Shown here: piece after piece, positions 9,993-50,795 of the stretch
How the letters are laid out: the number at the start of each line of letters is the position of its first letter
Position numbering within the stretch: the first letter of the stretch is position 1
Translations under genes and position numbers: made by a program
The notes under the pieces: model-generated
Databases searched by the model: none
The model's input: the letters and a program-made list of their open reading frames with translations, nothing else
What the model was told of the DNA's origin: nothing
Assembly: GCA_028715115.1 (NCBI GenBank)
Contig: JAQUSN010000001.1
Location: 3,314-67,313, forward strand
DNA length: 64,000 nucleotides
Direction: 5' to 3'
Source: Patescibacteria group bacterium
GTDB taxonomy: Bacteria > Patescibacteriota > Patescibacteriia > UBA2591 > UBA4787

Positions 9993-10024
9993 ATTCTAGC
10001 AAATTTAATTTAAAAAGCCAACCC

Positions 10025-10053
10025 TTGACAAAAGAGAGAAAATATGATAACAT
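10025..10053 (+). promoter_or_regulatory. sigma70-like promoter TTGACA-17-TAACAT of GC-rich cassette 1
   Basis: TTGACA at 10025-10030, TAACAT at 10048-10053. AAGGAGG at 10086-10092 precedes the GTG start. Confidence 0.4.
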
Positions 10054-10098
10054 ATGGGTACTTAGCACAAAGGGCACTAATGCCCAAGGAGGTTCTAC

Positions 10099-10797
10099 GT
10101 GAAAGTTCGCAATCTCTGGCACCTGACATGGATCGTGCCTGTGACCGTAACGGCTGTGATTGGGCTCGGGACAGCAATCAAGCCCATCACCCACGGCATC
10201 AAGCAGGCGTACGCCAAAATGGGCCGAGTGGCCGGCGATTTCGCCGACAACACAGCCTGTGCAGCTATAAACCAGCTCAATGACGACACGCTCGACGCGA
10301 AGCGGCTGTCCAGGCGGCAACTACTCGACTCCCTCTACTACCTAAGAATGCGGGTCCAGGAACAGGAGTATGAGCTGACAGACCTGTACAACCAGCTCAA
10401 CACCAACCTGTACTACCAGACCGGCATCTTCCGGGTCGAGGCGGCGGAAATACAAAACGTCCAAATCAACGGCCTCTACGAAGAAGCCGATGGCCTGATC
10501 AACAGACTGATCCATACCTGTTACCTCGGTCGAAACGTCATGTCCGACTACCTGACAGCACCCAAGGGCGCCCAGGCAGACACCAAAGTCATGCTTGAGC
10601 ATGCGTTTTACCAGGTCATTCGACCTGCGTCGCGACGCATCATCCAGTACCTGCAGATCAAGCACTACAGGGACGGATGGACCAACAACCTGGGAATCGG
10701 ATGGCCGGAACTGAACGGGGAAGATCTGCGATGCCTTAACTGGGCAGTCGCGGTCAACCTAGACCAGCCAACAACCTGGCTCTACAGCGAACCGTAA
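10099..10797 (+). CDS. hypothetical secreted/membrane-anchored protein encoded in a high-GC island (GTG start)
   Basis: 232 aa. Strong GC3 codon bias (about 55-58% GC against a 38% background). AAGGAGG RBS 6 nt upstream. N-terminal hydrophobic segment. Confidence 0.6.
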   Translation: MKVRNLWHLTWIVPVTVTAVIGLGTAIKPITHGIKQAYAKMGRVAGDFADNTACAAINQLNDDTLDAKRLSRRQLLDSLYYLRMRVQEQEYELTDLYNQLNTNLYYQTGIFRVEAAEIQNVQINGLYEEADGLINRLIHTCYLGRNVMSDYLTAPKGAQADTKVMLEHAFYQVIRPASRRIIQYLQIKHYRDGWTNNLGIGWPELNGEDLRCLNWAVAVNLDQPTTWLYSEP

Positions 10798-10808
10798 CCG
10801 TTCCGAAA

Positions 10809-10850
10809 AAGGCCGGGCCCCGCAAGGAGCCCGGCCTTGACTTTTATCTA
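10809..10850 (+). terminator. intrinsic terminator with a GNRA-capped GC stem (AAGGCCGGGCCCCGCAAGGAGCCCGGCCTT) and a T tract
   Basis: 10-bp GC stem followed by GACTTTTATC. Overlaps the -35 box of the next promoter. Confidence 0.6.
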
Positions 10851-10864
10851 AAATATGCTATTAT
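10837..10864 (+). promoter_or_regulatory. sigma70-like promoter TTGACT-16-TATTAT, near-identical to the promoter at 32551
   Basis: ttgacttttatctaaaatatgctattat versus ttgacttttaaccaaaatatgctataat at 32551-32578. Confidence 0.45.
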
Positions 10865-10941
10865 ATAAAAGCAATCGTAGAAATACGAAGGCAAGAACGT
10901 CGCTGGACACAAGTCTAGCGGCACAAACTAAGGAGACAAGA

Positions 10942-11397
10942 ATGAAGACGCTTATTCCCTTAACGATAGTTATCCTGCTGCTCGGCTTCGGGGGCTGCAC
11001 CAAAACTGGCGCAATTCCCGAGGACAATCTGGTAGCAACCAGCATAACGGCCCCGCACGATTCCCTGGATGAACTCTCAACATCAGCGAAACAGCTGATA
11101 CGGGACGTCAAGGACGCCATAACAGACAATGACAACCCGCGCGACTTCTGGTTCTGGACGATCGGCAGGTCGTTGGCCAAGATGGCTGTGGCACTGCAAC
11201 GTGCCCCGACCGAACGACAGACGTTCTATCTGCCTATCCTGAAGAAGGAACTCGAAGTCTACAACCAGAAGTTCTGCCCTTGTGCCCGTTCCTACCGAGA
11301 AGACCAGGCAGTCCTGACCTGGGTAAAGCAATTCCAGGCGGAAGACTCGACTACCTGGACACCACCCGAAGTGCTCCTGCGCGGAGCACTCGAATAA
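10942..11397 (+). CDS. hypothetical lipoprotein (high-GC island)
   Basis: 151 aa. MKTLIPLTIVILLLGFGGC is a lipobox-like signal. AAGGAG RBS at 10930-10935. A 5' UTR hairpin CGCTGGAC-ACAA-GTCTAGCG precedes it. Confidence 0.6.
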   Translation: MKTLIPLTIVILLLGFGGCTKTGAIPEDNLVATSITAPHDSLDELSTSAKQLIRDVKDAITDNDNPRDFWFWTIGRSLAKMAVALQRAPTERQTFYLPILKKELEVYNQKFCPCARSYREDQAVLTWVKQFQAEDSTTWTPPEVLLRGALE

Positions 11398-11410
11398 CCT
11401 CCGCTGGAAC

Positions 11411-11450
11411 CAAAACCGGCCGCCTTCGGGCAGCCGGTTTTCCTTTTGCG
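11411..11450 (+). terminator. intrinsic terminator AAAACCGGCCGCC-TTCG-GGCAGCCGGTTTT plus CCTTTTG
   Basis: GC stem with a UUCG-type loop and flanking A/T tracts. Confidence 0.6.
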
Positions 11451-11460
11451 CAACAATCTA

Positions 11461-12330
11461 TTAAATACCAAATAATTTTTCGCTGTTTTCCATCGTCGCC
11501 TGTTCTACTTCTTCAAAAGAAGTATTTTTTATTTGCGCGATTTTTTCGATAATATATCTGACATGCCAAGGTTCACAACGCTGGCGCCGCACTGGCTGTG
11601 GCGATAAATACGGACAATCGGTTTCAACCAAAATTCTATCCAAGGGTGTTTTTGCCACCACCTCAAGTAAATTGTTCATAGCGACCCTCCTTCGTTCGTC
11701 TGACGAACGACGGGTTCTCGATTTTTCATCTTTGCTTTCAGCAAAGGAAAAATCGGAAGGATATGTAATGATTCCGGTAAAACCAAGATAAAATCCGCAG
11801 CTTAAAAATTTATGCGCGGTTTGCCAATCAGCTGAAAAGCAGTGCAATTCGCCTCGCGGCGCATAACCAAAATTATCTATTATTAACAATAGATCTTCAT
11901 AAGCCTGAAGCGGTCTATCTTTACCGCCCCGACAATGTAAAATAACCGGTAAATCAACCTCTTTGGCTAACTCTAAATGTCTTAAAAAAACTTCTTTCTG
12001 CCTATCATAATTCATAATTCCTGATTCATTATTCTGATGTTGATCCAAGCCTGTTTCGCCAATGGCTTTAATAAAATCATAATTATTTTTTACCAATTGG
12101 CAATATTGTTTTAAATCAAAACTCTCGTCTTTGACATGAATCGGATGAAGGCCAACGGCTGCAAAAACTCCGTCAAATTGCCGAGCAATCTGAATGGCCT
12201 TTTGACTAGTTAAGAAATTTGAACCGATATTAATAATTTTAGCCACGCCTTTGGCTTGGCTATTTTTTATTACCTCGGCATAATCGTCTTTGAACGCCTG
12301 AAAATTTAGATGGCTATGAACGTCGAACAT
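11461..12330 (-). CDS. TatD-family metal-dependent hydrolase (DNase) with an internal roughly 33-aa insertion
   Basis: MFDVHSHLNF, GLHP and ETD motifs. Insert TYPSDFSFAESKDEKSRTRRSSDERRRVAMNNL is encoded by DNA containing the hairpins CGTTCGTCTGACGAACG and TTTGCTTTCAGCAAA. Confidence 0.8.
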   Translation of the reverse strand: MFDVHSHLNFQAFKDDYAEVIKNSQAKGVAKIINIGSNFLTSQKAIQIARQFDGVFAAVGLHPIHVKDESFDLKQYCQLVKNNYDFIKAIGETGLDQHQNNESGIMNYDRQKEVFLRHLELAKEVDLPVILHCRGGKDRPLQAYEDLLLIIDNFGYAPRGELHCFSADWQTAHKFLSCGFYLGFTGIITYPSDFSFAESKDEKSRTRRSSDERRRVAMNNLLEVVAKTPLDRILVETDCPYLSPQPVRRQRCEPWHVRYIIEKIAQIKNTSFEEVEQATMENSEKLFGI

Positions 12331-12363
12331 GAAAAATAAAATATGAGAGATAAAAACTCGGTC

Positions 12364-13146
12364 TTATCTTTTTAATAAATATTTTAGCCAACTGGACGCG
12401 TGAATCCAGGTTATTTTTTTAAATAGGCCCAGCGGTTCAGCTGATAAACGCTGGTGATAATGATAAAACGGCGCTTCGGCTACGTACCAAACCTGCCAAT
12501 TATTTTTTTTCACCCGGCGGCATAATTCCACGTCCTCAAAATAAAGAAAGAATCTTTCATCCAGCCCGCCAATTTGCTCAACCGCCAACCGGTTTAACAT
12601 CATAGCTCCGCCCAAAACCCAATCAACTTCCCTATTTTCTTGATGATCCCAGTCTTTCATTAAATAATAATCAATTTGTTTTTTACCCCAGCCAAATCGG
12701 CCCAAAAAAGTACGCCGCAAAATTGGCATATACCACTTAGGAAAACGATAGGCCGAAAACTGAAGGGTTTTATCCGGATTTAAAAGTTTTGGCGCAGCAA
12801 TAGCGCAACGACCATGGCTCTTTATAAATTGATGCAGTTTTTCAACCGACCCGGGCAAAATAATAATATCTGGATTTAAAACTAAAACATATTGGCCAAT
12901 AGATTGTTTAAGACCTTGATTTACGGCCTTAGCAAAACCAAGATTAACAGCATTTAAAATTATTTGCGGTTTAATAGCGGGCTCGTTTTTAATGTCACTT
13001 AATAAGTCCCTCGTGCCGTCGGAAGAATTATTGTCGACAACAATCAATTCAAAATTTAATTTTATCTGTGCATTAATAATGTTCTGCCAGCATTGTTTGA
13101 GCAGATTTTTTTGATTGTAATTAACAATGATAATCGACAGGTCCAT
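12364..13146 (-). CDS. family 2 glycosyltransferase
   Basis: LSIIIVNYNQ...VVDNNSSDGT GT-A fold motifs. Confidence 0.8.
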   Translation of the reverse strand: MDLSIIIVNYNQKNLLKQCWQNIINAQIKLNFELIVVDNNSSDGTRDLLSDIKNEPAIKPQIILNAVNLGFAKAVNQGLKQSIGQYVLVLNPDIIILPGSVEKLHQFIKSHGRCAIAAPKLLNPDKTLQFSAYRFPKWYMPILRRTFLGRFGWGKKQIDYYLMKDWDHQENREVDWVLGGAMMLNRLAVEQIGGLDERFFLYFEDVELCRRVKKNNWQVWYVAEAPFYHYHQRLSAEPLGLFKKITWIHASSWLKYLLKR

Positions 13147-13147
13147 T

Positions 13148-14254
13148 TTAATTAATATATTTTCTTATTTTATCGCTCTTGATTTTAGCCCGAGAAAAAA
13201 TCTGCGCGCGTTTTTTAAACATTAAAATCTGCTTAGCATAAAATGATTTTTCGGCTTTTAATAAAACCCCTGGTTGAGTAAATAATAAATATAAAATTTT
13301 GATTGATTGGTAAAAGAAAATATGAAAAATATCTTTTAAAAAATTGGCGATGGGCTCATTTTTAATAAGCAACCACAAATGATTGCGATAGGATAAAAAA
13401 TTAACCCAGCTCGACTTGTTGAATCTTTTCATTGCCGACACTTGCCGAACATGATATGCTATCGCCTCTGGCACATATAAAGCACCCCAATTGCGCCACT
13501 TTAGTCGCCACGCCAAATCAATGTCTTCTTGGTAAGAATGAAAATCTTCGTCAAAATATTCATTTCTAAAAGCCGACTTGCGTCGCTCTCCCATAGAAAA
13601 ACGTGAAGCACTTGGTGCAGACGAATAATGAGAAAAAATTTTTAATTTTATATCATCTAAAGCCTTCCGTCTATACAAGACGCAAGCACCAGAAACGCCA
13701 AAAATATCAAATAATTTATCGTATTGTTTTTTATCGACTTCCCCTTCGCCGCGATCAACTACCCGCCTAGTTCTTCTAATAGCAAGGCCTGTGCTATCTA
13801 AAATATCGGTTTTAGTCACGCACCAGTCGGGGTTGATGGCTGCGCCAGCGCCTTGTTGCTCCTGGTGCTCGCCGTGATCAATATGAGAGAATTTCATCTT
13901 TAATAATTTTGGCGCAAAGCTGCCAATCTTCTTTTGTTTGTCAACTTCATTAATTATTTTTTCTAAAAAATCCGGCTCTAAAATAACGTCCGGATTTAAA
14001 ACCAAAACATATTCGCTATCTGTAGCCAAAATCCCCTGGTTGTGGGCTCTGGCATATCCGCAGTTGCGGGAATTTTTTAAAATTTTAACTTGCGGCCAAT
14101 TCCTAATTAAATAGCCGACCGAATGGTCAGAGGAGGCGTTATCGATAATTAAAATCGAAAAATCCCGAAAGGTTTGGTTAAATATCGACTCCAAACAATC
14201 AGGCAAAAACCTTAAAGAATTCCAAGTGACGATTTGTATTGAAACCTTGACCAT
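13148..14254 (-). CDS. family 2 glycosyltransferase
   Basis: VSIQIVTWNSLRFL...IIDNASSDHS. DxD-like motifs. Confidence 0.8.
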   Translation of the reverse strand: MVKVSIQIVTWNSLRFLPDCLESIFNQTFRDFSILIIDNASSDHSVGYLIRNWPQVKILKNSRNCGYARAHNQGILATDSEYVLVLNPDVILEPDFLEKIINEVDKQKKIGSFAPKLLKMKFSHIDHGEHQEQQGAGAAINPDWCVTKTDILDSTGLAIRRTRRVVDRGEGEVDKKQYDKLFDIFGVSGACVLYRRKALDDIKLKIFSHYSSAPSASRFSMGERRKSAFRNEYFDEDFHSYQEDIDLAWRLKWRNWGALYVPEAIAYHVRQVSAMKRFNKSSWVNFLSYRNHLWLLIKNEPIANFLKDIFHIFFYQSIKILYLLFTQPGVLLKAEKSFYAKQILMFKKRAQIFSRAKIKSDKIRKYIN

Positions 14255-14312
14255 CCTACCTACTAATTACGAATTAAAACTAATTGCGAATAATTTCTAT
14301 CTCCGATCAATA

Positions 14313-16620: not shown

Positions 16621-16648
16621 TTGACAAAATGTCAAAAAATATTATAAT
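16621..16648 (+). promoter_or_regulatory. consensus sigma70 promoter TTGACA-16-TATAAT of GC-rich cassette 2
   Basis: ttgacaaaatgtcaaaaaatattataat. GGAGGTG RBS at 16668-16674. Confidence 0.5.
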
Positions 16649-16677
16649 TAAATCAAGCAACCTGTTTGGAGGTGTTG

Positions 16678-16914
16678 ATGACTAGAGAGCAAAGTGATTG
16701 GCTCGTAATAGGAATAGGGTTTGTACTTACCTACACGCTCTCCCTGTTCTTGCCCTACACGCCATTCTTCGTCCACGCCATCAAGATGTTCATCGTCAAC
16801 TTACTGTGGTGGGGAGTCGTCATGGGGCTGGCCGCTTCAGAAGGTCGACGCTTCGACGAAGAAACGAAGCAACGAGCCATACGACTGAGCATAACAAACG
16901 CCGGTCGCGCCTAA
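16678..16914 (+). CDS. small two-TM membrane protein (78 aa) encoded by high-GC DNA
   Basis: MTREQSDWLVIGIGFVLTYTLSLFLPYTPFFVHAIKMFIVNLLWWGVVMGLAAS... GC3-rich codons. The ORF track starts earlier at a TTG. Confidence 0.55.
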   Translation: MTREQSDWLVIGIGFVLTYTLSLFLPYTPFFVHAIKMFIVNLLWWGVVMGLAASEGRRFDEETKQRAIRLSITNAGRA

Positions 16915-16935
16915 GCGCGACCGGCTTCTATTTAT
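16892..16935 (+). terminator. intrinsic terminator CCGGTCGCGC-CTAA-GCGCGACCGG plus T-rich tail
   Basis: 10-bp GC stem that contains the stop codon in its loop, followed by CTTCTATTTATATT. Confidence 0.6.
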
Positions 16936-16956
16936 ATTATAAGTTTATTATAAAAA

Positions 16957-25543: not shown

Positions 25544-25765
25544 CTAGCTCTTCAAGGCGCCAGTTTTAATCAAAAACTCGCGCTTAGCCTGATCGCTCTT
25601 GCGTCGTAAAGCGCTAATTTTTCTCGCTCGCGAAGTAGTTGTTCGAGAACGAAAACGGCGGCCTTTCACTTCTTTGACTAGGCCACTGCGCACTACGCTT
25701 TGATTGAAGCGTCGAATCATTCCCTCGGTCGATTCGCCAGCTTTTTTCTTAACTTCGATTGTCAT
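25544..25765 (-). CDS. rpsU: 30S ribosomal protein S21
   Basis: MTIEVKKKAGESTEGMIRRFNQSVVRSGLVKEVKGRRF... -35/-10 TTTACA-17-TATAAT and an AGAGGTGA RBS upstream on the minus strand. Confidence 0.85.
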   Translation of the reverse strand: MTIEVKKKAGESTEGMIRRFNQSVVRSGLVKEVKGRRFRSRTTTSRARKISALRRKSDQAKREFLIKTGALKS

Positions 25766-25832
25766 AAAATTCACCTCTTATAGAAATTATAACGTAAAAT
25801 ATAAGAATGTAAATACATTATCCCCAGTTAAT

Positions 25833-25925
25833 AAAGAAAAACAGGTCCCAGCCGAAGCCGGGACCCGTAGGGGGTCAAAACCGCTCTCAGGACGAAAGCG
25901 GAGACCGAAAACTCGCCGCCTCCAC
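25833..25925 (-). ncRNA. candidate small RNA (about 90 nt, GC-rich) with its own promoter and an intrinsic terminator, divergent from glyA
   Basis: Minus-strand TTGACA (25954-25959)-16-TAAGAT (25932-25937). Terminator GGTCCCGGC-TTCG-GCTGGGACC (25844-25865) followed by TGTTTTTCTTT. No SD and no credible ORF. Confidence 0.25.
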
Positions 25926-25944
25926 CACAACATCTTAATATATT

Positions 25945-25973
25945 TTGACTTTTTGTCAATGGTGTGCTATAGT
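25945..25973 (+). promoter_or_regulatory. sigma70-like promoter TTGACT-17-TATAGT for glyA. Its -35 is part of the palindrome TTGACTTTTTGTCAA shared with the divergent minus-strand promoter.
   Basis: ttgactttttgtcaatggtgtgctatagt immediately upstream of the glyA ATG at 25981. Confidence 0.4.
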
Positions 25974-25980
25974 ACGTTCT

Positions 25981-27258
25981 ATGTTAAAAAACCTCAAAAA
26001 ATCAGACCCGATTATTGCCAAAATAATCCAAAATGAAATCAAACGCCAGCAAGACGGCCTGGTTTTGATTGCCTCGGAAAATTATGCTTCACCGGCAGTT
26101 TTAGAAGCACTCGGCTCGGCCTTGACCAATAAATATTCCGAAGGTTATCCGGGCAAGCGTTATTACGGCGGCAATCAATTCATCGATCAGACAGAAAATC
26201 TGGCCATTGAACGGGCTAAAAAATTGTTTTTGCCCAAAAATCAATGGACAAACTGGCAAGTTAACGTCCAACCCTATTCCGGTTCGCCGGCTAACTTGGC
26301 TGTTTATTTTGCCCTACTTCAACCCGGGGCCCTTGCCAAAGGGAATAAGGCAAGCAAAATCATGGGCATGAGTCTGGCCCAAGGCGGCCATTTGACTCAC
26401 GGCCATCCGGTTAACCTTTCCGGCAAAATATTTAAAATAATTCCTTACGGCGTTGACCAGAAAACAAATTTATTAAATTATAAAGAAATCGAAAAAATCG
26501 CACTAAAGAATAAGCCGCAACTTATCGTTTGCGGCGCTACGGCTTATTCCCGGGAAATAGATTTCAACGCTTTTAGAAAAATCGCCGACAAAGTCGGCGC
26601 GATTCTCATGGCTGATATTTCCCATATTGCCGGGCTTATTGCCGCTAAAAAACACTTGAGTCCCTTTCCTTATTGTGACGTTATTACAACCACGACCCAT
26701 AAAACCTTACGCGGCCCGCGCGGCGCTATGATTTTTGCCAAAAACGAATTGGCTGAACCGATTCAAAAAATGATTTTTCCCGGCACGCAAGGCGGACCGC
26801 ACGACAATAACGTCGCCGGTATTGCTGTGGCCTTGCAAGAAGCACTAAAACCTTCTTTTAAAAAATACGGGGCACAAATTTGTCTTAACGCCAAGATCCT
26901 AGCTCAAACTTTAAAACAAAATGGACTAAACATAATTACTGGCGGCACTGATAACCACTTGATTTTAGTTGACGTACGTAACGCCGAATTAAATGGCAAG
27001 GAAGCAGAAAAATTATTGGAAAAAGTCGGTATTTACGTTAACCGCAACACTATTCCTTTTGATCCTAATCCTCCCTTTAAGCCGTCTGGTCTACGACTCG
27101 GCACACCGGCTTTAACCACGCGCGGCATGAAAGAGAAAGAAATGAAAATTATCGGCCAATTAATCGCTAAGATAATTTTTGCGCCGCAGAATGAAGCAAT
27201 AAAAAAAACGGTGCGGCAAACCGTTAAAAAACTAACAAAAAAGTTTAAAATTTACTAA
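25981..27258 (+). CDS. glyA: serine hydroxymethyltransferase
   Basis: MLKNLKKSDPIIAKIIQNEIKRQQDGLVLIASENYASPAVLEALGS... PLP-lysine region TTTTHKTLRGPRG. Confidence 0.9.
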   Translation: MLKNLKKSDPIIAKIIQNEIKRQQDGLVLIASENYASPAVLEALGSALTNKYSEGYPGKRYYGGNQFIDQTENLAIERAKKLFLPKNQWTNWQVNVQPYSGSPANLAVYFALLQPGALAKGNKASKIMGMSLAQGGHLTHGHPVNLSGKIFKIIPYGVDQKTNLLNYKEIEKIALKNKPQLIVCGATAYSREIDFNAFRKIADKVGAILMADISHIAGLIAAKKHLSPFPYCDVITTTTHKTLRGPRGAMIFAKNELAEPIQKMIFPGTQGGPHDNNVAGIAVALQEALKPSFKKYGAQICLNAKILAQTLKQNGLNIITGGTDNHLILVDVRNAELNGKEAEKLLEKVGIYVNRNTIPFDPNPPFKPSGLRLGTPALTTRGMKEKEMKIIGQLIAKIIFAPQNEAIKKTVRQTVKKLTKKFKIY

Positions 27259-32550: not shown

Positions 32551-32578
32551 TTGACTTTTAACCAAAATATGCTATAAT
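32551..32578 (+). promoter_or_regulatory. consensus-like promoter TTGACT-16-TATAAT of GC-rich cassette 3
   Basis: ttgacttttaaccaaaatatgctataat. AAGGAGG at 32593-32599. Confidence 0.5.
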
Positions 32579-32603
32579 TTAAAAACAAACTAAGGAGGAA
32601 ATC

Positions 32604-32966
32604 ATGCTGATTGTGATTGTGATCTGGGCCGTCCTGATGCTGGCCTATCCCGTCCTTCCCGTTGTTCTTTCGGGAATCTTACCGCCCCTGGTCTTTCTGA
32701 TCCTGTCCCTGATCTCAAACGAGGACTCTGTGTTCTCGACTCTGTGGACGGTCTTCATCATCTGCGGTATAGTCGGCGCCATCCTGAGCATCTTCTTCGT
32801 CCCGCAAGAGATCTTTTCGGCCAAAGACCCTGTGGTGCTGTATTTCCGGTTCACGAGGATGTGTGGCCTAATCGCCGCCTACGCAGTCACGATTGTCGTG
32901 GCTATTGTGAAAGTCATCAACTTAATCGAGACAAGGGCAAGAGCAAGGGCCGCAACAACCGTCTGA
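32604..32966 (+). CDS. small polytopic membrane protein (120 aa) encoded by high-GC DNA
   Basis: MLIVIVIWAVLMLAYPVLPVVLSGILPPLVFLILSLI... GC3-rich. About 4 TM helices. Confidence 0.55.
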   Translation: MLIVIVIWAVLMLAYPVLPVVLSGILPPLVFLILSLISNEDSVFSTLWTVFIICGIVGAILSIFFVPQEIFSAKDPVVLYFRFTRMCGLIAAYAVTIVVAIVKVINLIETRARARAATTV

Positions 32967-32974: not shown

Positions 32975-33012
32975 TGGGGCGCTCGCACATCGCGGGCGCC
33001 TCTGACCGTTTT
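32975..33012 (+). terminator. GC-rich hairpin (GGGCGCTCGCACATCGCGGGCGCC) plus T tract
   Basis: Follows the stop of the 32604 ORF. Followed by TCTGACCGTTTTAG. Confidence 0.45.
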
Positions 33013-34580: not shown

Positions 34581-35264
34581 TTAAATAACGTATCGACCGC
34601 CCTTGATTTGATCGCCGATAACCATGCCGTGATCTAAGGTAATTACTCGACGTTTTAATAAATTAACAATTTCTCGATTATGACTCACCAGTAAAATAGT
34701 CGTACCGAATTTATTAATTTTTAAAAGCAAATCAATTATATCTCTGGTATTAATGGAGTCGAGATTGCCAGTCGGCTCATCGGCAATTAAAATTTTTGGC
34801 TTATTGGCAATGGCTCGGGCAATAGCTACGCGCTGCGCCTCGCCAGCCGATAATTGATGAGGCCAACGATTGGCCTTACTTTCTACGCCAACAATGCGTA
34901 AAATTTGCGGAACCATAGCTTTTATTTTTTTTTCCGGAGTACCGACTACTTCAAGGGCAAAAGCAACGTTTTCGTAAACGTTTTTTTTGGGCAATAATTT
35001 AAAATCCTGAAAGACCACACCCACCTGACGGCGTAAATATGGTATTTCTTGACTATTAATATCAGTGATATCCCAGCCGCCAATGATGATTTTGCCCTGG
35101 GTGGCCTTTTCTTCGGCAATAAGCAATTTTATAACCGTGGTTTTGCCGGCACCTGATTGGCCAACCAGGGAAACAAACTCGCCCGCCTCAACACTAAAAG
35201 AAACATTACGCAAAGCATGCGTATTTGGCGGATAGAATTTACTAATGTTGATTAATTTAATCAT
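34581..35264 (-). CDS. ABC transporter ATP-binding protein (FtsE/LolD-like)
   Basis: Walker A GQSGAGKTT, signature LSAGEAQRVAIARA, Walker B ILIADEPT. Confidence 0.8.
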   Translation of the reverse strand: MIKLINISKFYPPNTHALRNVSFSVEAGEFVSLVGQSGAGKTTVIKLLIAEEKATQGKIIIGGWDITDINSQEIPYLRRQVGVVFQDFKLLPKKNVYENVAFALEVVGTPEKKIKAMVPQILRIVGVESKANRWPHQLSAGEAQRVAIARAIANKPKILIADEPTGNLDSINTRDIIDLLLKINKFGTTILLVSHNREIVNLLKRRVITLDHGMVIGDQIKGGRYVI

Positions 35265-35276
35265 TTAATTTTTTTC

Positions 35277-35332
35277 TGGAGCCGAGGGTGAGGATCGAAC
35301 TCACGACCTATGGTTTACGATACCGTTGCCCC
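35277..35332 (-). pseudogene. 3' remnant of a tRNA-Thr-like gene (D-stem 3' side through CCA, anticodon CGU)
   Basis: rc = GGGGCAACGGTATCGTAAACCATAGGTCGTGAGTTCGATCCTCACCCTCGGCTCCA. Its acceptor 3' strand CCTCGGC matches the isolated 5' fragment GCCGAGGTAGCTC at 35625-35637. Confidence 0.5.
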
Positions 35333-35347
35333 GCCTGCCATCGCCCT

Positions 35348-35420
35348 AGCCCGCGGTCGGAATCGAACCGACAACCTACGGTTTACGATACCGTTGCTCT
35401 ACCAGTTGAGCTACACGGGC
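35348..35420 (-). tRNA. tRNA-Thr (anticodon CGU)
   Basis: rc = GCCCGTGTAGCTCAACTGGTAGAGCAACGGTATCGTAAACCGTAGGTTGTCGGTTCGATTCCGACCGCGGGCT. 7-bp acceptor, loop ATCGTAA. Flanked by GGCGATGGCAGGCGGGG (35329-35346) and CCTGCCCGCCATAG (35426-35439). Confidence 0.85.
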
Positions 35421-35444
35421 TCAGGCTATGGCGGGCAGGTCTAC

Positions 35445-35528
35445 CCTACTTCGAGCTTATTAATTAAGCTCGAACGGGCCGTCCAGTTTTTTTCAAAAAC
35501 TGGAATAGGCCAATTGAGCTATCTGGGC
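35445..35528. repeat. conserved double-hairpin repeat (TTCGAGCTTA-N-TAAGCTCGAA, CGGGCCGT, CCAGTTTTT-N3-AAAAACTGG, AATAGG) fused to a 19-nt tRNA 5' fragment (GCCCAGATAGCTCAATTGG on the minus strand)
   Basis: About 80% identical to 41280-41358. The hairpin core is also at 40671-40690. Confidence 0.7.
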
Positions 35529-35624
35529 AAAAGTGGCGGGGCAAGGCTGCCCCGACGTTTTAGTCGGTCCGATGACTCCGACGAGTATCGGACTCCGTCG
35601 GAGGACTCCGACTGTAACGTCGGA

Positions 35625-35637
35625 GAGCTACCTCGGC
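35625..35637 (-). pseudogene. isolated tRNA 5' fragment GCCGAGGTAGCTC (identical to nt 1-13 of tRNA-Thr(UGU) at 40605-40617, plus 2 nt of its upstream flank)
   Basis: rc of gagctacctcggc. Followed on the minus strand by hairpin-rich sequence homologous to 40690-40760. Confidence 0.5.
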
Positions 35638-35820
35638 ATTAACACTCAGTCAGCCTATTAATATAATACACTAGGCTGAAAATTTTTCAATTGGAGCGGG
35701 TAACGGCCTGCCTGCCCTGACTGCCGTCAGGCGGGCGGTAGGCAGGGAATTGAATCTTTACTTGGGAAGTCCTAAAAGTTTTTGCAATCCGCCAAATTGC
35801 GGAGAAGTAGTGAATTTTTG

Positions 35821-35895
35821 TGGAGCGGGCGACCGGATTCGAACCGGCGACCTTCTGCTTGGGAAGCAGACATTCTACCACTGAACTACGCCCGC
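35821..35895 (-). tRNA. tRNA-Gly (anticodon CCC), CCA encoded
   Basis: rc = GCGGGCGTAGTTCAGTGGTAGAATGTCTGCTTCCCAAGCAGAAGGTCGCCGGTTCGAATCCGGTCGCCCGCTCCA. Confidence 0.85.
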
Positions 35896-35936
35896 TTAAT
35901 CAAAAGGGATATATCTTGGCTCGCAAAAAACCGGAT

Positions 35937-35968
35937 CCTCGAAAAAGATATTCACTGCCAACTGGCAG
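35937..35968 (-). terminator. putative intrinsic terminator downstream of def (CTGCCAGTTGGCAG plus TCTTTTTCG)
   Basis: 14-nt perfect palindrome at 35955-35968 followed by a U-rich tract on the minus strand. Confidence 0.35.
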
Positions 35969-36020
35969 ATCATTCTTTTCCGGGAGACGCATTCTGCCGT
36001 TGAACCATACCCGCCTAAAA

Positions 36021-36635
36021 TTATTTTTTAGAGCTATTCTTAATTTTTTTTAATTGTCCTCTTAATTTGGCTTTTTGATAAAAACTTAGTCTATCAATCA
36101 ATAATTTACCGACTAAATGATCCATCTCGTGTAAAATTACTCTAGCTAAAAGATCTTCAGCCCTAATAATGGTTTTTTGTCCGCTAGAAAAATCTATATT
36201 TTCAATTTCTATTTTTTCCGGCCGTTTGACTAATACGGATACTCCTGGCACGCTTAAACATCCTTCTTCTAATTTTTTGCATTTTTTTGACTTCTTAATT
36301 ATTTTGGGATTAATTAAAATAATCGGTCCTTCGCCAATATCAACGATGGCGATTTTTTTAGCCACTCCCACTTGATTAGCGGCTAGACCAACTCCATCAG
36401 CATCGCCTAAAGTCGCCAGCATATTGGCAATTAGTTTTCTCGCCTCATCGTCAATAGCTAAAACCGACTTAGCCGTCTGACGCAAAACTGGATGCCCATA
36501 AGCTACAATATCTAAAATTTGCGAGGTAAAATTTTTTATCTCGCTATTAATTATCGGTATAGCATTGATTCTCTTGCCTTTTGAGGATAAAGTCATAAGT
36601 AAATAATATATTAGCAAAATCTGCCGATTTGTCAA
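36021..36635 (-). CDS. def: peptide deformylase
   Basis: GLAANQVGV, EGCLSVPG and HEMDHL motifs. Confidence 0.85.
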   Translation of the reverse strand: MTNRQILLIYYLLMTLSSKGKRINAIPIINSEIKNFTSQILDIVAYGHPVLRQTAKSVLAIDDEARKLIANMLATLGDADGVGLAANQVGVAKKIAIVDIGEGPIILINPKIIKKSKKCKKLEEGCLSVPGVSVLVKRPEKIEIENIDFSSGQKTIIRAEDLLARVILHEMDHLVGKLLIDRLSFYQKAKLRGQLKKIKNSSKK

Positions 36636-40931: not shown

Positions 40932-41004
40932 AGCCCGAGGTCGGATTTGAACCGACGACCTACTCCTTACCATGGAGTTGCTCTACCAGCTGAGCTACCC
41001 GGGC
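40932..41004 (-). tRNA. tRNA-Thr (anticodon GGU)
   Basis: rc = GCCCGGGTAGCTCAGCTGGTAGAGCAACTCCATGGTAAGGAGTAGGTCGTCGGTTCAAATCCGACCTCGGGCT. Confidence 0.85.
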
Positions 41005-41256
41005 ATGTTGTAAATATTGTTTTAAAATTTTCTGCTTTAATTTGGCGCTATATAAACTTTTAAAGTATTTTTCTTGTTCCATCGCTTCAACTCGTGTATC
41101 AAATGATTCTTGATGAATAACAATAAACGGCCTTCTATTTTTTGTCGATATTACCTGCCCACTATTATGTTTTTTAACTCTCGCCACTAGGTCATCAGTT
41201 TGCCCAACATATAATTTTTTATCTTTCAGGCTATATAAGATATAAACAAAATACAT
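40960..41256 (-). CDS. GIY-YIG domain endonuclease (small, URI-type). The 3' end of the ORF runs into the tRNA-Thr(GGU) gene.
   Basis: FVYILYSLKDKKLYVGQTDDLVARVKKHN...E matches GIY / YIG / R / H-N / E spacing. The last roughly 15 codons are tRNA sequence. Confidence 0.65.
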   Translation of the reverse strand: MYFVYILYSLKDKKLYVGQTDDLVARVKKHNSGQVISTKNRRPFIVIHQESFDTRVEAMEQEKYFKSLYSAKLKQKILKQYLQHARVAQLVEQLHGKE

Positions 41257-44765: not shown

Positions 44766-44799
44766 AGATAATATAAAAAATTAAATAATATAGTATTGC

Positions 44800-44915
44800 C
44801 AAGGGAGCGACCTGCCCGCCTATTGCCTATCCAAGAGTTAATCTAAACAAGAATTAAAGAAACAATATTCTTTCTAGGTTTTAACTCCATGGGACGGCGT
44901 TGGCAGGCGGGGCGA
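44800..44915 (-). promoter_or_regulatory. glyQS leader carrying the same GC-rich inverted-repeat pair as the pheT leader (CCTGCCCGCC-TAT ... GGCG-TT-GGCAGGCGGGG) around a 75-nt AT-rich segment. Upstream -10 TATAAT abuts the palindrome GGATGTTATACATCC.
   Basis: Arms at 44808-44820 and 44896-44912. Palindromes at 44973-44987 and CCGCCAGCCGGCGG at 44945-44958. Confidence 0.3.
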
Positions 44916-45059
44916 TAAAGAAAAATTAATTTTTCTTTTCCGATCCGCCAGCCGGCGGAGTTGGCAACAATAGGATGTTATACATCCTATTATAATATAA
45001 ATAATAAAAAAGAAAAGCCAAAAACCTGGCTTAAAAGCGGTAAAGTATTGAGTTGGTTT

Positions 45060-45665
45060 TTAAATATCCTGGGCTCGTTTGATCACGATAATGCCCATGG
45101 CCTGAGCCAAAACCGACAATGATTTATCACGGGTTAATAAATATATTTTATCATTTTCCGTCCTTTTTAAGGATAAACAAGAAGCAATAATACGCAGGTC
45201 TGTCGTGCCGATTAAGTCGCGTAAAGCGGTGGCGTGTGGATCAGAAATCGGGGCTAAGTTTATTTTTTCTCGTTTTAAATTCCACTCTCGTTTATTTTTA
45301 CGGAAAATATTTCTTAACTGCTCGGCGGTGTTAGTGTCAAATTCGGCCAAAGTTTTGTTCTCGATTGATTGTAAAAGTCCGGAGCGAGACGAGCCGGCCA
45401 CGTGCCATTTCCTGTTTAATATCTTCTGCAAAATAATAATCTGGATAATGAAAAATATATTATAGTGCATATTTTCGTCCTCTTCTTTCTCCTTTTGCAA
45501 CCCCATACGCAGCACTTGTTCTAAAACGGCGCGAGGGATATAAATATTTTTCAAATATTTTAATCGTTCGCGATCCTGACCGCTCAATAAAACACAGGTG
45601 TCAACCACCACGTTTTTTTTCTTTCGGCTTAACCCCCAAAAATATAGTCGTATCTTTTTAAACAT
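45060..45665 (-). CDS. PIN-domain nuclease (putative)
   Basis: VVVDTCVLLSG N-terminal PIN motif. Acidic residues in the C-terminal half (TDLRIIAS..TRDKS). Confidence 0.5.
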   Translation of the reverse strand: MFKKIRLYFWGLSRKKKNVVVDTCVLLSGQDRERLKYLKNIYIPRAVLEQVLRMGLQKEKEEDENMHYNIFFIIQIIILQKILNRKWHVAGSSRSGLLQSIENKTLAEFDTNTAEQLRNIFRKNKREWNLKREKINLAPISDPHATALRDLIGTTDLRIIASCLSLKRTENDKIYLLTRDKSLSVLAQAMGIIVIKRAQDI

Positions 45666-45708
45666 GTAGATATTATAATCAAAATCAAATAAAAAGTCAA
45701 TTCTTCTG

Positions 45709-46836
<1,128 letters not shown>

Positions 46837-47547
46837 TTATCCTAAATGCCATTTAAAGAAGCGATTTATAACTACTTTGGCACGACGAAAATCAGCTTTT
46901 ATGAATTTACTTCGCTCTAATTGATCAAAACGACGATACAATAATTGACGCAAAACTTCGGCCACGGCCGGACTAATTGAGATGGCCGCGGCATGTTTTT
47001 TTACCAAACATTTTTCACACACCAAACCGCCATGAGACACATCAAAAAATATTTTTTCACCCGCCTTGGGCTGCCGATGGCAAAACAAGCATTTTTTTAT
47101 TTCCGGCTGATAACCCAATAAAGACAAAAACTTTAGTAAAAAGGCGTAAAAAAATATTTCTTTATCGATTAAGGTGCGCCGGTTCAGGCTTTCTAAAAAT
47201 TTTACTATTAAATCGAAAACTTGACGATTAATTTTTTCCGGTTTGATGATTTCATCCAGCGTTTTAAATAAGCGCGCCAAGAGCCAAGTCTTGTCGTAAC
47301 TAGATAAAATATTTTTGAAATACTTTTTTATTTCACCGCCGATTAAATGATAATGATTTCTGCCTGATTCAAGTGAAAGACTTAGTATAGCATAAAATCC
47401 GCTGGTCAGCGGAGCTAATTTGCTATTTGATTTTTGAGCGCTGCGAACCAAAATATCAACCTTACCGAGTTCACGGGTATAACAAGTAATTATCCGGTCG
47501 TGTTCTTTATGCACTCTCGACCGTAAAACTATGGCATTAAGAACCAT
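46837..47547 (-). CDS. recO: DNA repair protein RecO
   Basis: N-terminal OB fold. C-terminal zinc finger CLFCHRQ...CEKC. Confidence 0.8.
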   Translation of the reverse strand: MVLNAIVLRSRVHKEHDRIITCYTRELGKVDILVRSAQKSNSKLAPLTSGFYAILSLSLESGRNHYHLIGGEIKKYFKNILSSYDKTWLLARLFKTLDEIIKPEKINRQVFDLIVKFLESLNRRTLIDKEIFFYAFLLKFLSLLGYQPEIKKCLFCHRQPKAGEKIFFDVSHGGLVCEKCLVKKHAAAISISPAVAEVLRQLLYRRFDQLERSKFIKADFRRAKVVINRFFKWHLG

Positions 47548-47553
47548 ATTGAA

Positions 47554-50406
47554 TTATATAAACAATATTATTTCTGCTCCATCAATATCGGCTTCTTTAG
47601 AAAACTTCGCTTCTTTGGGTTGGCCAAGAATAAAATTATTGCTTAATGTTTCGGTTTTAATCTTATCAGAAAAATTATCGATAACGCCTCTTAAGCCTTC
47701 GTCGCCGGTGCCATAATATAAATCGATTTTATCTTTAATGGTCAATTTAGCTTCCTTGCGGAACGAATTTATTTGACGAACCAACTCACGCACCTGTCCC
47801 TCGGCTTTTAATTCAGGAGTAATGATCGTATTAAGAGCAACTCTGTCTTCGGCGCTCACCCAGCCGTCGCCGCTCGATAATTTTTCGACAATCGTCGTCT
47901 CTTTAACGTTTAATTCTTCTCTGATGATTCCCAGAAGTTCTACCGGAACCTGACATGATTTGGCAATTTCTAAACGGCCAAGCGGTTGGCGGACTTTAAC
48001 GCCACTCGAAGCTCGCAAACTGTGAGCCAAAGCGCAGATATCAACGACTGCCTTCATCTGGCTAAGTAATTTCTCGTCAATTAGAGATTTATCGGCTATC
48101 GGCCAATCGGATAAATGAACCGAATCGGCTTTATTGGTTAGTTGCTGATAAATTTCATCGCTGATAAACGGCGTAAATGGCGCTAATAATTTAGCTATGC
48201 CTAATAAAACATAACCTAAAACCTGGCTTTCGTTAGGATTTTTTTTGAAACGATCGCGTGAACGGCGAATATACCATTGCGACAATTCGGTGATAAAAGC
48301 TTCGATGTCGCGGCCGGCAGTCGTTATATCATACTTATCTAATCTTTCGGTAACGTTTTTGACCAAAAAATTATATTTTGCCAAAAGCCATTTATCTAAA
48401 ACATTTGATGATTTATTTGCTTCAATATTAGACGGCAAAGAATGACCGGTTAATTTATAAAACTCCAAGCAATTCCAAAGTGTCAGAAGCATGCGTTGCA
48501 CGACTTTTTTCACACCTTCAGTATCAAACAGTTTGCTTTCGCCAGGCTGATTGACGGTATACAAATACCAACGCAGGGCATCAACGCCGTATTCGTTGAT
48601 CACGCTCATCGGCGCGATGACATTACCCACGTGCTTGGACATCTTCTGTCCCTTTTTATCTAAAATATGACCCAAACAGATCGCGTTTTTATAGCAAGCG
48701 CCTTGATCTAAGAGCGTCGAAATACCGAGCAAAGTATAAAACCAGCCACGCGTCTGATCAATGGCCTCGGAAATATATTCAGCCGGATAGTTTATGCCTT
48801 TATCGATTCTCTCTTTATTCTCAAAAGGATAATGCCACTGGGCAAAGGGCATGGCGCCGGAATCAAACCAACAATCCATCACTTCGGCTACGCGGGTCAT
48901 TTTTTTGCCACACCCAGGGCAGTTCCAGGTGTAATCATCAATATATGGTTTATGCGGATCAAAAGGCTCAGGTAATTGTTTACCGGCTTTCTCTGATAAT
49001 TCTTTATAAGAGCCTAAACATTCTCTGTGTTGGCAGCCCTTACATTCCCAGATCGGAATCGGTGTACCCCAATAACGTTCACGCGAGATCGCCCAGTCTT
49101 TAATGCCGCTTAACCATTCACCGAAACGTCCTTCTTTGATGTGGGCCGGCACCCAATTTATTTCCTTGGCATTATCCAATAATTGTTTTTGCAGTTCGGT
49201 CATTCTGATAAACCAGGATTTTCTCGAATAATATAAAAGCGGTGAATCGCAGCGCCAGCAAAAAGGATAATCGTGCGCGTATAATTCCGTACCAAAAAGA
49301 ATGCCTCGTTTTTTCAAATCTTCCATAATGTCCGCATCAGCATCTTTGGCAAATTTCCCCTTGCCCGGCACATCAACTACCAGCTTGCCCTCCAAATCAA
49401 GTGTCAGCATTTCCGGAATTGGCAGTTTATCTTGAATAAATAATTGATAATCTTCTTCGCCGTAATGAGGCGCGATATGAACCATGCCCGTGCCGTCTTT
49501 AATAGAAACGAAATCAGCCGCGTAAACTTTAAAATAAGTTGGATCATCGTAAATCTTGTACATCGGTTCATAGCGCCAGCCAATTATCTTATCGCCCTTA
49601 AATTCTTCGACAATTTCATAGCCATGCGCGCCCAAAACTTTATCTACTAAATTTTTAGCTAAAATATAAAAATCTTGGCCTGACTTAGCTTTGACATATT
49701 CTATTCGTTCACCGGCGGCTACGGCCAAATTTGACGGTAAAGTCCAGGGCGTAGTCGTCCAAACTAATAAATAGGTATTTTCCTGACCGACAACTTTTAA
49801 TTTCAAATAAACTGATTGCTCTTTGACGTTTTTATAACCCTGGGCCACTTCATGCGAAGACAAGGCCGTGCCACAACGCGGACAATATGGCACCACTTTA
49901 TAGGCTTGATAAATCAAACCCTTGTCCCAAACTTGTTTAAAAATCCACCATAGAGTTTCAATATATTCTTTCTCATATGTGATGTAGGGATGTTCGAGGT
50001 CCAACCAGAAACCGATGCGCCGAGTCATATCTTCCCACTCTTTTTTATATTTCCAAACGTTTTCCTTACATTTTTCATTGAATTTGGCCACGCCGTATTT
50101 CTCAATGTCCGGCTTGCCGGAAACGCCGATTTGTTTTTCAACTTCAAGCTCAACCGGCAATCCTTGCGTATCCCAACCAGCCTTACGTTCAACAAAATAT
50201 CCCTGCATGGTCTTATAGCGCAAAATGATATCTTTAAAAATTCGGGCTAAAACATGATGAATGCCGGGCAGACCGTTGGCGGTCGGCGGACCTTCAAAAA
50301 ACACAAAATTGCCCTTGGGCGATTTTTTCGCCAAAGATTTGGCAAAAGTTTTGTCCTTATCCCAAAAAGCCAGGATCTTTTCTTCAATTTTAGAAAAATT
50401 TATCAT
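47554..50406 (-). CDS. ileS: isoleucine--tRNA ligase
   Basis: HIGH-like PGIHHVLARI, KMSKHVGN, IleRS signature WTTTPWTLPSN. 950 aa. Confidence 0.9.
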   Translation of the reverse strand: MINFSKIEEKILAFWDKDKTFAKSLAKKSPKGNFVFFEGPPTANGLPGIHHVLARIFKDIILRYKTMQGYFVERKAGWDTQGLPVELEVEKQIGVSGKPDIEKYGVAKFNEKCKENVWKYKKEWEDMTRRIGFWLDLEHPYITYEKEYIETLWWIFKQVWDKGLIYQAYKVVPYCPRCGTALSSHEVAQGYKNVKEQSVYLKLKVVGQENTYLLVWTTTPWTLPSNLAVAAGERIEYVKAKSGQDFYILAKNLVDKVLGAHGYEIVEEFKGDKIIGWRYEPMYKIYDDPTYFKVYAADFVSIKDGTGMVHIAPHYGEEDYQLFIQDKLPIPEMLTLDLEGKLVVDVPGKGKFAKDADADIMEDLKKRGILFGTELYAHDYPFCWRCDSPLLYYSRKSWFIRMTELQKQLLDNAKEINWVPAHIKEGRFGEWLSGIKDWAISRERYWGTPIPIWECKGCQHRECLGSYKELSEKAGKQLPEPFDPHKPYIDDYTWNCPGCGKKMTRVAEVMDCWFDSGAMPFAQWHYPFENKERIDKGINYPAEYISEAIDQTRGWFYTLLGISTLLDQGACYKNAICLGHILDKKGQKMSKHVGNVIAPMSVINEYGVDALRWYLYTVNQPGESKLFDTEGVKKVVQRMLLTLWNCLEFYKLTGHSLPSNIEANKSSNVLDKWLLAKYNFLVKNVTERLDKYDITTAGRDIEAFITELSQWYIRRSRDRFKKNPNESQVLGYVLLGIAKLLAPFTPFISDEIYQQLTNKADSVHLSDWPIADKSLIDEKLLSQMKAVVDICALAHSLRASSGVKVRQPLGRLEIAKSCQVPVELLGIIREELNVKETTIVEKLSSGDGWVSAEDRVALNTIITPELKAEGQVRELVRQINSFRKEAKLTIKDKIDLYYGTGDEGLRGVIDNFSDKIKTETLSNNFILGQPKEAKFSKEADIDGAEIILFI

Positions 50407-50469
50407 ACCAAATTTGTCGAAATCAAGGTTGGTTAATAGAAAAATAATACCACAAAATTAATCGTTGTC

Positions 50470-50502
50470 AACAAAAAACGCCTAAATCAGGCGTTAATCG
50501 GA
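50470..50502 (-). terminator. hairpin AACGCCTGATTTAGGCGTT followed by TTTTTGTT on the minus strand (terminator or ileS-leader attenuator)
   Basis: Lies between the GT1 gene end and the ileS start. Confidence 0.35.
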
Positions 50503-50537
50503 GCTTATGGCGTTGTTATTAACAATTATTTAATATC

Positions 50538-50566
50538 TTGACATTTTCTTAAAAACGTGCTATAGT
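50538..50566 (+). promoter_or_regulatory. promoter TTGACA-17-TATAGT of GC-rich cassette 4
   Basis: cttgacattttcttaaaaacgtgctatagt. AAGGAGG at 50583-50589. Confidence 0.45.
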
Positions 50567-50594
50567 ATAATTACCAATTAATAAGGAGGCTCCG

Positions 50595-50765
50595 GTGAGC
50601 GATTTCTTGAAGATATTGATCGGCTTAGTAATGCTGATCGGAGGCGGACTACTGAGCTATACGGCGTTCTGCCCCATCGTCCTGTGCATTGCCGGAGCAG
50701 GCGCCATCATAGCGCTTTGGTCCGCTTATGTCATGGCTTGCCGGTCTTGTCACATAGCAGGCTGA
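50595..50765 (+). CDS. small (56 aa) Cys-containing hydrophobic protein, GTG start, high GC. Absent from the ORF track.
   Basis: VSDFLKILIGLVMLIGGGLLSYTAFCPIVLCIAGAGAIIALWSAYVMACRSCHIAG. GC3-rich. Perfect SD spacing. Confidence 0.5.
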   Translation: MSDFLKILIGLVMLIGGGLLSYTAFCPIVLCIAGAGAIIALWSAYVMACRSCHIAG

Positions 50766-50795
50766 CTTCGGTCAGCCTGCTTCTGCTTTTATTTA
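50756..50795 (+). terminator. intrinsic terminator GCAGGCTGAC-TTCG-GTCAGCCTGC plus TTCTGCTTTTATTT
   Basis: 10-bp perfect stem with a UUCG loop that overlaps the stop codon. Confidence 0.65.

Follow-up and report, generated by a model that had tools for sequence, protein, structure and literature searches.

Small GC-rich gene cassettes with Shine-Dalgarno sites between the housekeeping genes of a Patescibacteria genome

Results

We analysed a 64-kb stretch of a Patescibacteria genome (contig JAQUSN010000001.1), referred to throughout as the window, in which five short GC-rich units, here called cassettes 1 to 5, lie between housekeeping genes. The GC content of the window was 39.5%, its GC skew was negative along the entire length, and the minus strand held 39 of the 46 host genes that could be placed with confidence. 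The window encodes PheRS subunits, an AddA-type helicase-nuclease, TatD, glycosyltransferases, a Wzy-type polymerase, SHMT, ThyX, FolD, TGT, RecO, IleRS, ribosomal proteins, RpoA, MurB, CysRS and six tRNAs, and lacks an rRNA gene. Among its annotated open reading frames (ORFs), none coded for an integrase, a transposase, a reverse transcriptase or a phage structural domain, and the closest IleRS relatives with a source name were labelled Patescibacteria. The same proteins with exactly the same flanks were present in several NCBI metagenome-assembled genomes (one contig of 479 kb), and the same locus was recovered in independent Logan assemblies of two sequencing runs, made with different assemblers. 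Thus, the window is housekeeping Patescibacteria DNA, and a chimeric contig, which the initial annotation had named as one way in which its reading could fail, was ruled out.

Each cassette is on the plus strand in an intergenic gap amid minus-strand genes and consists, as far as the sequence can tell, of a promoter, a Shine-Dalgarno (SD) sequence, one small ORF and a terminator hairpin. Cassettes 1 and 2 are adjacent. Cassette 1 has a putative TG-extended promoter (TTGACA-17-TAACAT, the number giving the spacer in nt; 10025..10053), the SD AAGGAGG (10086..10092) 6 nt ahead of a GTG start, and an ORF of 232 amino acids (10099..10797; GC 0.56; GC at third codon positions, GC3, 0.73) with a predicted N-terminal membrane anchor and helical domain. 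Its terminator hairpin (10809..10838, −25.7 kcal/mol) extends by the 3′ arm and tail into the −35 box of cassette 2, whose putative promoter, also TG-extended, lies at 10837..10864 (TTGACT-16-TATTAT). The 5′ leader of cassette 2 (10865..10941) contains the SD AAGGAG (10930-10935), and is followed by an ORF of 151 amino acids (10942..11397; GC3 0.66) with a lipoprotein-like signal (..LGFGGC) and by a terminator with a UUCG loop and a U-tail (11414..11447, −21.2 kcal/mol). The coordinates first given for the five units were right, except that the cassette 2 ORF begins at the ATG at 10942 and not at 10855.

Cassette 3 has a putative promoter with 12/12 consensus matches (TTGACA-16-TATAAT, 16621..16648), the SD GGAGGT (16668-16673), an ORF of 78 amino acids with two hydrophobic segments (16678-16914; GC3 0.62) and a terminator with an 11-bp stem and a CUAA loop (16900..16925, −25.4 kcal/mol). 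Cassette 4 has a TG-extended candidate promoter (TTGACT-16-TATAAT, 32551..32578), the SD AAGGAGG (32592-32598), an ORF for a predicted multi-pass membrane protein of 120 amino acids (32604-32966; GC3 0.71) and a hairpin with a weak U-tail (32976..33002, −22.5 kcal/mol). Cassette 5 separates the GT1 stop codon from the old GT1 terminator (50495-50477), and has a TG-extended candidate promoter (TTGACA-17-TATAGT, 50538..50566), the SD AAGGAGG (50583-50589), an ORF of 56 amino acids with two hydrophobic segments (50595-50765; GC3 0.63) and a terminator with an 11-bp stem and a UUCG loop (50756..50781). An antisense promoter-like site was noted within it (ATGACA-17-TATGAT, 50734-50706, minus strand); an RNA started there would pair with the 5′ part of the cassette and end at the old GT1 terminator, an arrangement that recalls type I toxin-antitoxin loci.

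The five candidate promoters have 10 to 12 of 12 hexamer matches to TTGACA/TATAAT with spacers of 16-17 nt, and in no scanned region did another promoter-like site score higher. The hairpins follow immediately 3′ of every stop codon, with energies of −21.2 to −25.7 kcal/mol (z −3.4 to −6.9) and the loops GCAA, UUCG, CUAA, ACAUC and UUCG in cassettes 1-5, respectively. The GC-rich zone roughly matches the extent of the presumptive transcript, the promoters being AT-rich. In these respects (promoter hexamers, GC-stem terminators, opposite orientation, intergenic placement, and AT-rich promoters ahead of GC-rich bodies) the initial annotation was borne out at all five units. The promoters themselves do not mark the cassettes as foreign, however, as they are of native type: IleRS, GT295, SHMT and an RNA upstream of rpsU carry the same TTGAC-N16/17-TAnnnT pattern. 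A promoter pattern common to cassettes 2 and 4 gave 16 matches in viral contigs, all from one unrelated AT-rich phage family, so the resemblance between these two promoters may be convergence on a generic strong promoter.

We found no consistent target duplication, shared terminal repeats or target motif around the cassettes. A 9-nt direct repeat, TTATTTAAT, is present on both sides of cassette 5, but 9-mers as rich in AT as this one recur by chance. Two divergent promoter pairs have −35 hexamers that overlap as a palindrome: TTGACAAAATGTCAA (16621-16635), where the promoters of cassette 3 and of the minus-strand GT295 (16635-16608) stand back to back, and TTGACTTTTTGTCAA (25945-25959).

Two further cassettes of the same genome, 6 and 7, are adjacent to each other on the plus strand of contig L042 (19670-20029 and 20195-20659), approximately 6-7 kb past the window end. 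With GC3 values of 0.65 and 0.75, both show the same build, a putative promoter and an AAGGAG(G) SD in front and a hairpin terminator behind; in the second, an additional GC-rich stretch of about 230 nt, possibly another small ORF, precedes the terminator. The genome thus has no fewer than seven cassettes within about 74 kb, a density of approximately one per 10 kb, and all seven are on the minority strand (0.5^7, approximately 0.008).

The cassettes differ from host genes in base composition and codon usage. Their GC3 is 0.62-0.73, compared with a host mean of 0.378 (standard deviation 0.026, n = 28), which corresponds to z scores of 9 to 14, so that the description of these ORFs as GC3-rich held at every unit; no other real ORF in the window had a GC3 of 0.55 or more. 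GC3 exceeds GC1 and GC1 exceeds GC2 in the cassette ORFs, and they are therefore truly coding. TTC made up 0.84 of Phe codons in the cassettes and 0.18 in the host, and the corresponding shares were 0.75 and 0.16 for TAC (Tyr), 0.86 and 0.28 for AAC (Asn), 0.65 and 0.19 for ATC (Ile), 0.56 and 0.16 for GTC (Val), 0.71 and 0.12 for CTG plus CTC (Leu), and 0.05 and 0.43 for TTA (Leu). The difference is wholesale, not a mild shift in GC. Its largest component is the replacement of T by C at third positions (T3 0.09-0.16 for cassettes, 0.30-0.39 for the host), with no depletion of A-ending four-fold codons, and the third-position C>G and A>T skews of the window cassettes fit residence on the plus strand. 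The proteins differ as well, with lysine at 3.9% of all residues against 8.0% in the host and with more alanine, threonine and arginine. Native translational codon selection was rejected as the cause because the ribosomal protein genes have no preference for C at third positions.

The contrast in SD sequences is as sharp. All five cassettes have AAGGAGG, AAGGAG or GGAGGT 4-6 nt ahead of the start codon, at the good spacing that the initial annotation had reported, and this sets them apart more strongly than had been claimed, since host genes are essentially devoid of SDs. In 42 of the 46 host genes no 4-mer of AAGGAGGT occurs at −20 to −4, and the host upstream regions are A/T runs, those of the ribosomal protein genes included. 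In a scan of both strands of the 64 kb, an SD with a start codon and a real gene was found only at the five cassettes and at rpsU (S21; ORF approximately 25765-25544, minus strand), which has GAGGTG at 25777-25772, 6 nt before its ATG. If rpsU is counted as the sole host gene with a functional SD, the difference between cassettes and host is significant (P of approximately 3 × 10−6, Fisher test computed by hand). The relatives are alike: their core genes lack SDs, and AGGAGG occurs at the cassettes and at a small number of accessory genes, of which some are GC-enriched. A host without SDs fits reports of a Parcubacteria subgroup that lacks the anti-SD motif (PMC9297842). Possible leaderless mRNAs were suggested at three host genes by a −10-like hexamer 0-7 nt before the start codon: SHMT (approximately 25968-25983), a PIN protein (45665-45680) and the helicase (9992-10002).

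All five window proteins have an N-terminal hydrophobic segment or are multi-pass, which supports the earlier prediction, made from sequence, of secreted or membrane-embedded products. The protein of cassette 6 (m6), beyond the window, has no hydrophobic segment, and cassettes 1, 2 and 7 encode predicted exported proteins of 150-230 amino acids. In pairwise comparison the cassette proteins are mutually unrelated. Searches of all of them with Pfam, PHROGs, PADLOC and NCBIfam gave nothing meaningful, and protein 1 matched only itself, both among 5.8 billion clusters and when 1.84 billion representatives were scanned exhaustively with phmmer. AlphaFold2 run on protein 1 without an alignment gave a mean pLDDT of 43, unusable as a fold. 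For homologs, proteins 3 and 5 were compared with exact clusters only and protein 4 with viral contigs only.

Protein 2 has one homolog, P0123, with 44% identity by BLASTP and 47% across 150 aligned codons, and the FGGC part of its lipoprotein-like motif is kept. P0123 lies on contig L021/L022, which has 40% GC, and is a GC-rich island there too (GC 0.57, GC3 0.68), at a different locus beside unrelated genes. The DNA similarity between the two copies extends from the −35 box through the spacer, −10 box, leader, SD and ORF to just past the terminator T-run. The promoters are thus homologous, the leader is largely conserved in an alignment read by eye, and the terminator is conserved. As the similarity is bounded by the −35 box and the terminator, the whole promoter-to-terminator unit was inherited or moved. 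The rate of non-synonymous substitution (dN) was 0.50 and that of synonymous substitution (dS) was 1.78, which is saturated, giving dN/dS = 0.28; the gaps that can be read by eye are mostly multiples of three. The cassette 2/P0123 family is therefore under purifying selection. L021/L022 also shares a non-coding stretch with the L018 lineage: a GC-rich element of approximately 180 nt is 92% identical between L021 357-539 and L018 1-177, and lies directly upstream of the cassette promoter in one and of the MurB promoter in the other. This similarity runs through TTGACTTT and then ends, and the element has no Rfam match.

Four gene junctions could be compared between the window and its relatives, and none of the four carries the same cassette in the relatives (0/4). 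The initial annotation had held that ancient vertical inheritance would be revealed by sibling genomes with the same units at the same sites; the relatives do not have them. Between TatD and the helicase, the window has 1468 nt with cassettes 1 and 2, whereas in L013, L006, L012 and L005 the two genes are adjacent with approximately 50-110 nt between them (48% identity for TatD, 58% for the helicase). The junction of a TSP3-repeat gene with GT295 spans 376 nt with cassette 3 in the window and approximately 155 nt in L010, where the region is fully syntenic at 53-69% identity. Conversely, GT260 and TatD are separated by 33 nt in the window and by 577 nt in L010 and L011, where a different cassette lies upstream of TatD on the opposite strand, with TTGACA-17-TATTAT, AGGAGG, a signal-anchored ORF of 125 amino acids (GC3 0.64) and a GC-rich hairpin. 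Between GT1 and IleRS, the window has approximately 380 nt with cassette 5, L025 has the two genes nearly abutting (IleRS 81% identical), and L018-L020 have 766 nt with a different, same-strand cassette of 165 amino acids and intermediate GC (IleRS 79%). As the IleRS promoter of the window is conserved in L018, the cassettes lie between the GT1 stop codon and that promoter.

The more distant L043 has a similar unit after IleRS (GC3 0.59), and no cassette was found in the other relatives within the 6-15 kb examined. A scan of genome contigs with TatD returned distant relatives only. Taken together, the junctions indicate that units with GC3 from approximately 0.5 to 0.75 are gained and lost at gene junctions in this clade. 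L010 and L011 are 99.6-99.7% identical in the flanking genes and 98.1% identical in the cassette ORF (L010 5592-5966, L011 926-1324), which contains a 24-nt tandem-duplication indel and, read by eye, at least four non-synonymous changes. Because of this difference, cassette proteins seem to evolve faster than their surroundings.

A GC-rich unit directly upstream of rpsU had been proposed, at 25833-25925, as a possible member of the same class. It does not belong there, being on the minus strand and non-coding, with neither an SD nor a credible ORF. The unit (25833..25959, minus strand; its extent is also given as 25826-25959) is predicted to comprise a promoter (25959-25932), about 100 nt with three hairpins, and a UUCG terminator. 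It matched no Rfam family in E-value mode (25760-25970), and may represent a small RNA or else the leader or attenuator of rpsU. Its promoter is back to back with that of SHMT, and the TTG at 25945 listed as the SHMT ORF start is actually a −35 box.

Three other features of the window were noted. A spacer of approximately 400 nt between tRNA-Gly and tRNA-Thr (35422-35820, minus strand) is GC-rich and has repeated CGGAGTC-type hairpins; the spacer matched no Rfam family, a run in E-value mode over 35000-36100 giving tRNAs and terminator-like noise only. Just downstream of tRNA-Thr(CGT) is a partial, tRNA-Thr-like 3′ half (35265-35320, minus strand) that resembles an attachment-site remnant. A GIY-YIG domain protein of 98 amino acids (40960-41256, minus strand) abuts a tRNA-Thr/Tyr/Thr cluster.

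Discussion

We consider it somewhat more probable than not, at roughly 58%, that the cassettes are accessory units resembling phage morons, acquired horizontally from a GC-richer gene pool that uses SDs. An outside origin is the simplest single cause, as it explains the GC-rich bodies, the C-ending codons, the low lysine, the GC-rich terminators and the SDs together. Autonomous units, each with a promoter, an SD, one small ORF and an intrinsic terminator, would have been added singly, and twice as adjacent pairs, into junctions between housekeeping genes. Each unit would depend on a strong sigma-70-type promoter of its own for transcription and on a canonical SD for translation, with a strong hairpin as insulation; the products would be small secreted, lipid-anchored or membrane proteins, probably serving the cell envelope in host-cell interaction or phage exclusion. 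The donor pool would be approximately 55% GC and SD-using, and complete expression cassettes would have been acquired from it. Patescibacteria often exchange genes by horizontal transfer, and pili and competence genes are widespread among them (PMC12455944). The initial annotation had gone further in calling the units a coherent foreign gene set. They are compositionally foreign, and one family does occur at unrelated loci in two genomes, but their proteins are mutually unrelated, so that coherence is limited to architecture and composition.

Several observations weigh against horizontal acquisition. No close relatives of proteins 1, 2, 4 and 7 were found in the IMG/VR viral contigs, searches with proteins 1 and 2 found no GC-rich donor, and the only homolog of protein 2 sits in an AT-rich relative. 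Other proteins compared between the lineages have identities on either side of the 47% of that pair (MurB 54%, a 221-amino-acid protein 42%, IleRS 79%), and random insertion does not explain why seven cassettes are all on one strand. Moreover, both copies of cassette 2 keep a GC3 of 0.66-0.68 at a dS of 1.78. Such GC-richness at saturated divergence implies either that the two copies arrived independently from an unseen pool or that their composition is actively maintained, and it makes the earlier suggestion of recent acquisition doubtful.

The most probable alternative is that the cassettes are a long-resident, lineage-specific class, in which selection or a local bias maintains GC-rich transcripts and SDs, for example as an SD regulon together with rpsU, read by ribosomes with an exposed anti-SD, or through selection for mRNA stability. 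Under this explanation, homologs detectable only in AT-rich Patescibacteria, a pair identity typical of the lineages, and a promoter, leader, SD and terminator largely conserved in two still GC-rich copies would all be expected. It also accommodates a GC-rich zone nearly co-extensive with the transcript behind an AT-rich promoter, third-position skews that match the plus strand, and an SD-less host with an rpsU exception, as in Bacteroidia (PMC9976891, PMC7797042). The shift in amino acids is, however, typical of long GC mutation pressure and not of codon selection, the ribosomal protein genes have no such bias, and the proteins are mutually unrelated. The cassettes are missing from the orthologous junctions of relatives, and those of intermediate GC (L018a, L043) look like amelioration. 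To our knowledge, no mechanism has been described that could keep GC3 at 0.7 in a genome of 39% GC. We therefore regard residence as unlikely, but the unusual selection that the initial annotation had offered as its alternative keeps some weight because both copies are GC-rich at a dS of approximately 1.8 and no donor was found.

A bolder form of this explanation, to which we give still less credence, is that the cassettes and rpsU are the only mRNAs that engage the anti-SD and are read by a sub-population or state of the ribosome. The cassettes would then be a maintained, translationally distinct class and not passing foreign DNA, their GC content and orientation being held by selection or by a dedicated cassette-generating mechanism.

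It is also rather improbable that the cassettes derive, as cargo or remnants, from a mobile element specific to the clade (a phage, a plasmid or a single-stranded DNA transposon) that would insert in a fixed orientation with respect to replication and would itself form the GC-rich reservoir. Replication-oriented insertion would account for seven of seven cassettes on the plus strand of a genome whose minus strand holds 39 of 46 host genes and whose GC skew is uniformly negative. The GT1/IleRS junction was hit independently in two species, TTATTTAAT flanks cassette 5, and the L010 and L011 contigs both stop just past TatD. Against this, the window has no recombinase, transposase or reverse transcriptase, there are no shared terminal repeats or target motif and 9-mers as AT-rich as that repeat recur by chance, no relatives were found in viral contigs or PHROGs, and none of the cassette proteins turned up in a second, GC-rich context.

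An artefact is very improbable overall, whether as a chimeric assembly, as ORFs that arose by chance in GC-rich structured non-coding RNAs, or as type I toxin-antitoxin loci. Structured RNAs often account for GC-rich islands in AT-rich genomes, but the locus is identical across independent assemblies, the codon periodicity is strong, the readable gaps of the cassette 2 alignment are mostly in triplets with dN/dS at 0.28, and Rfam run over the whole window at the gathering threshold matched tRNAs only plus terminator-like noise and no cassette. In favour of type I loci, the peptides of cassettes 3 and 5 are small (78 and 56 amino acids) and have two hydrophobic segments, and cassette 5 has its antisense promoter-like site; against them, cassettes 1, 2, 4 and 7 do not fit type I toxins, with 1, 2 and 7 encoding exported proteins of 150-230 amino acids in place of toxin peptides.

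If the cassettes were acquired as we favour, they represent a compact, recurrent form of gene addition, in which complete cassettes for small envelope proteins are dropped between core genes. Patescibacteria are a huge and mostly uncultured group of tiny symbionts in which the gain of functions is poorly understood, and our search of the literature found nothing specific on GC-rich cassettes in the candidate phyla radiation. In this lineage three independent signals, GC3, C-ending codons and an SD, would together mark acquired genes, which gives a simple route to a catalogue of the accessory surface repertoire. SD-bearing cassettes in an SD-less host raise a testable question about how such mRNAs are translated, and GC-richness that outlasts saturated divergence with no visible donor is an anomaly for standard models of amelioration.

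Among known systems, the translational setting resembles that of Bacteroidia, whose ribosomes are SD-blind with rpsU as the exception (PMC7797042, PMC9976891, PMC13000453), and in which bS21-free ribosomes translate SD mRNAs (PMC9976891, PMC7797042). In that type of genome the 16S rRNA has an anti-SD, but bS21, bS18 and bS6 sequester it. Here, too, host genes have A/T-rich upstream regions without SDs and rpsU has one, but the phylum is another, a whole accessory gene set also has strong SDs, and the rpsU SD (GAGGTG) is shorter than the extended SD of Flavobacteriales. Integron cassettes likewise have a single ORF ending in an imperfect GC-rich hairpin, unrelated ORFan cargo and heterogeneous composition. 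We rejected them as a match: the units described here each bring a promoter and are dispersed, not arrayed, their hairpins are ordinary terminators with U-tails, and no integrase was found among the annotated window ORFs (no attC model was run).

The islets and single-gene acquisitions described in Patescibacteria (PMC12455944) share atypical composition and a patchy distribution among relatives with the cassettes. Searches with proteins 1 and 2, however, found no donor or homologs outside the recipient lineage, and the cassettes are far smaller than typical islands, uniform in their promoter-to-terminator build, without mobility genes or tRNA association, and GC-rich in one family after saturated divergence.

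The closest likeness is to phage morons, which PMC3594210 describes as independent transcription units added between prophage genes. The cassettes differ from them in lying, with no phage gene close by, in a cellular chromosome between housekeeping genes (helicase/TatD, glycosyltransferases, IleRS), in their density of about one per 10 kb, in their single strand, and in having perfect SDs in an SD-less host. What they share with morons is a putative sigma-70-type promoter of their own, a single ORF and a predicted factor-independent terminator in all five, placement between genes that are adjacent in relatives (TatD/helicase, TSP3-repeat gene/GT295, GT1/IleRS), and a composition unlike that of their neighbours (GC3 z 9-14). 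Morons, moreover, often encode small envelope proteins and spread horizontally, as we propose for the cassettes.

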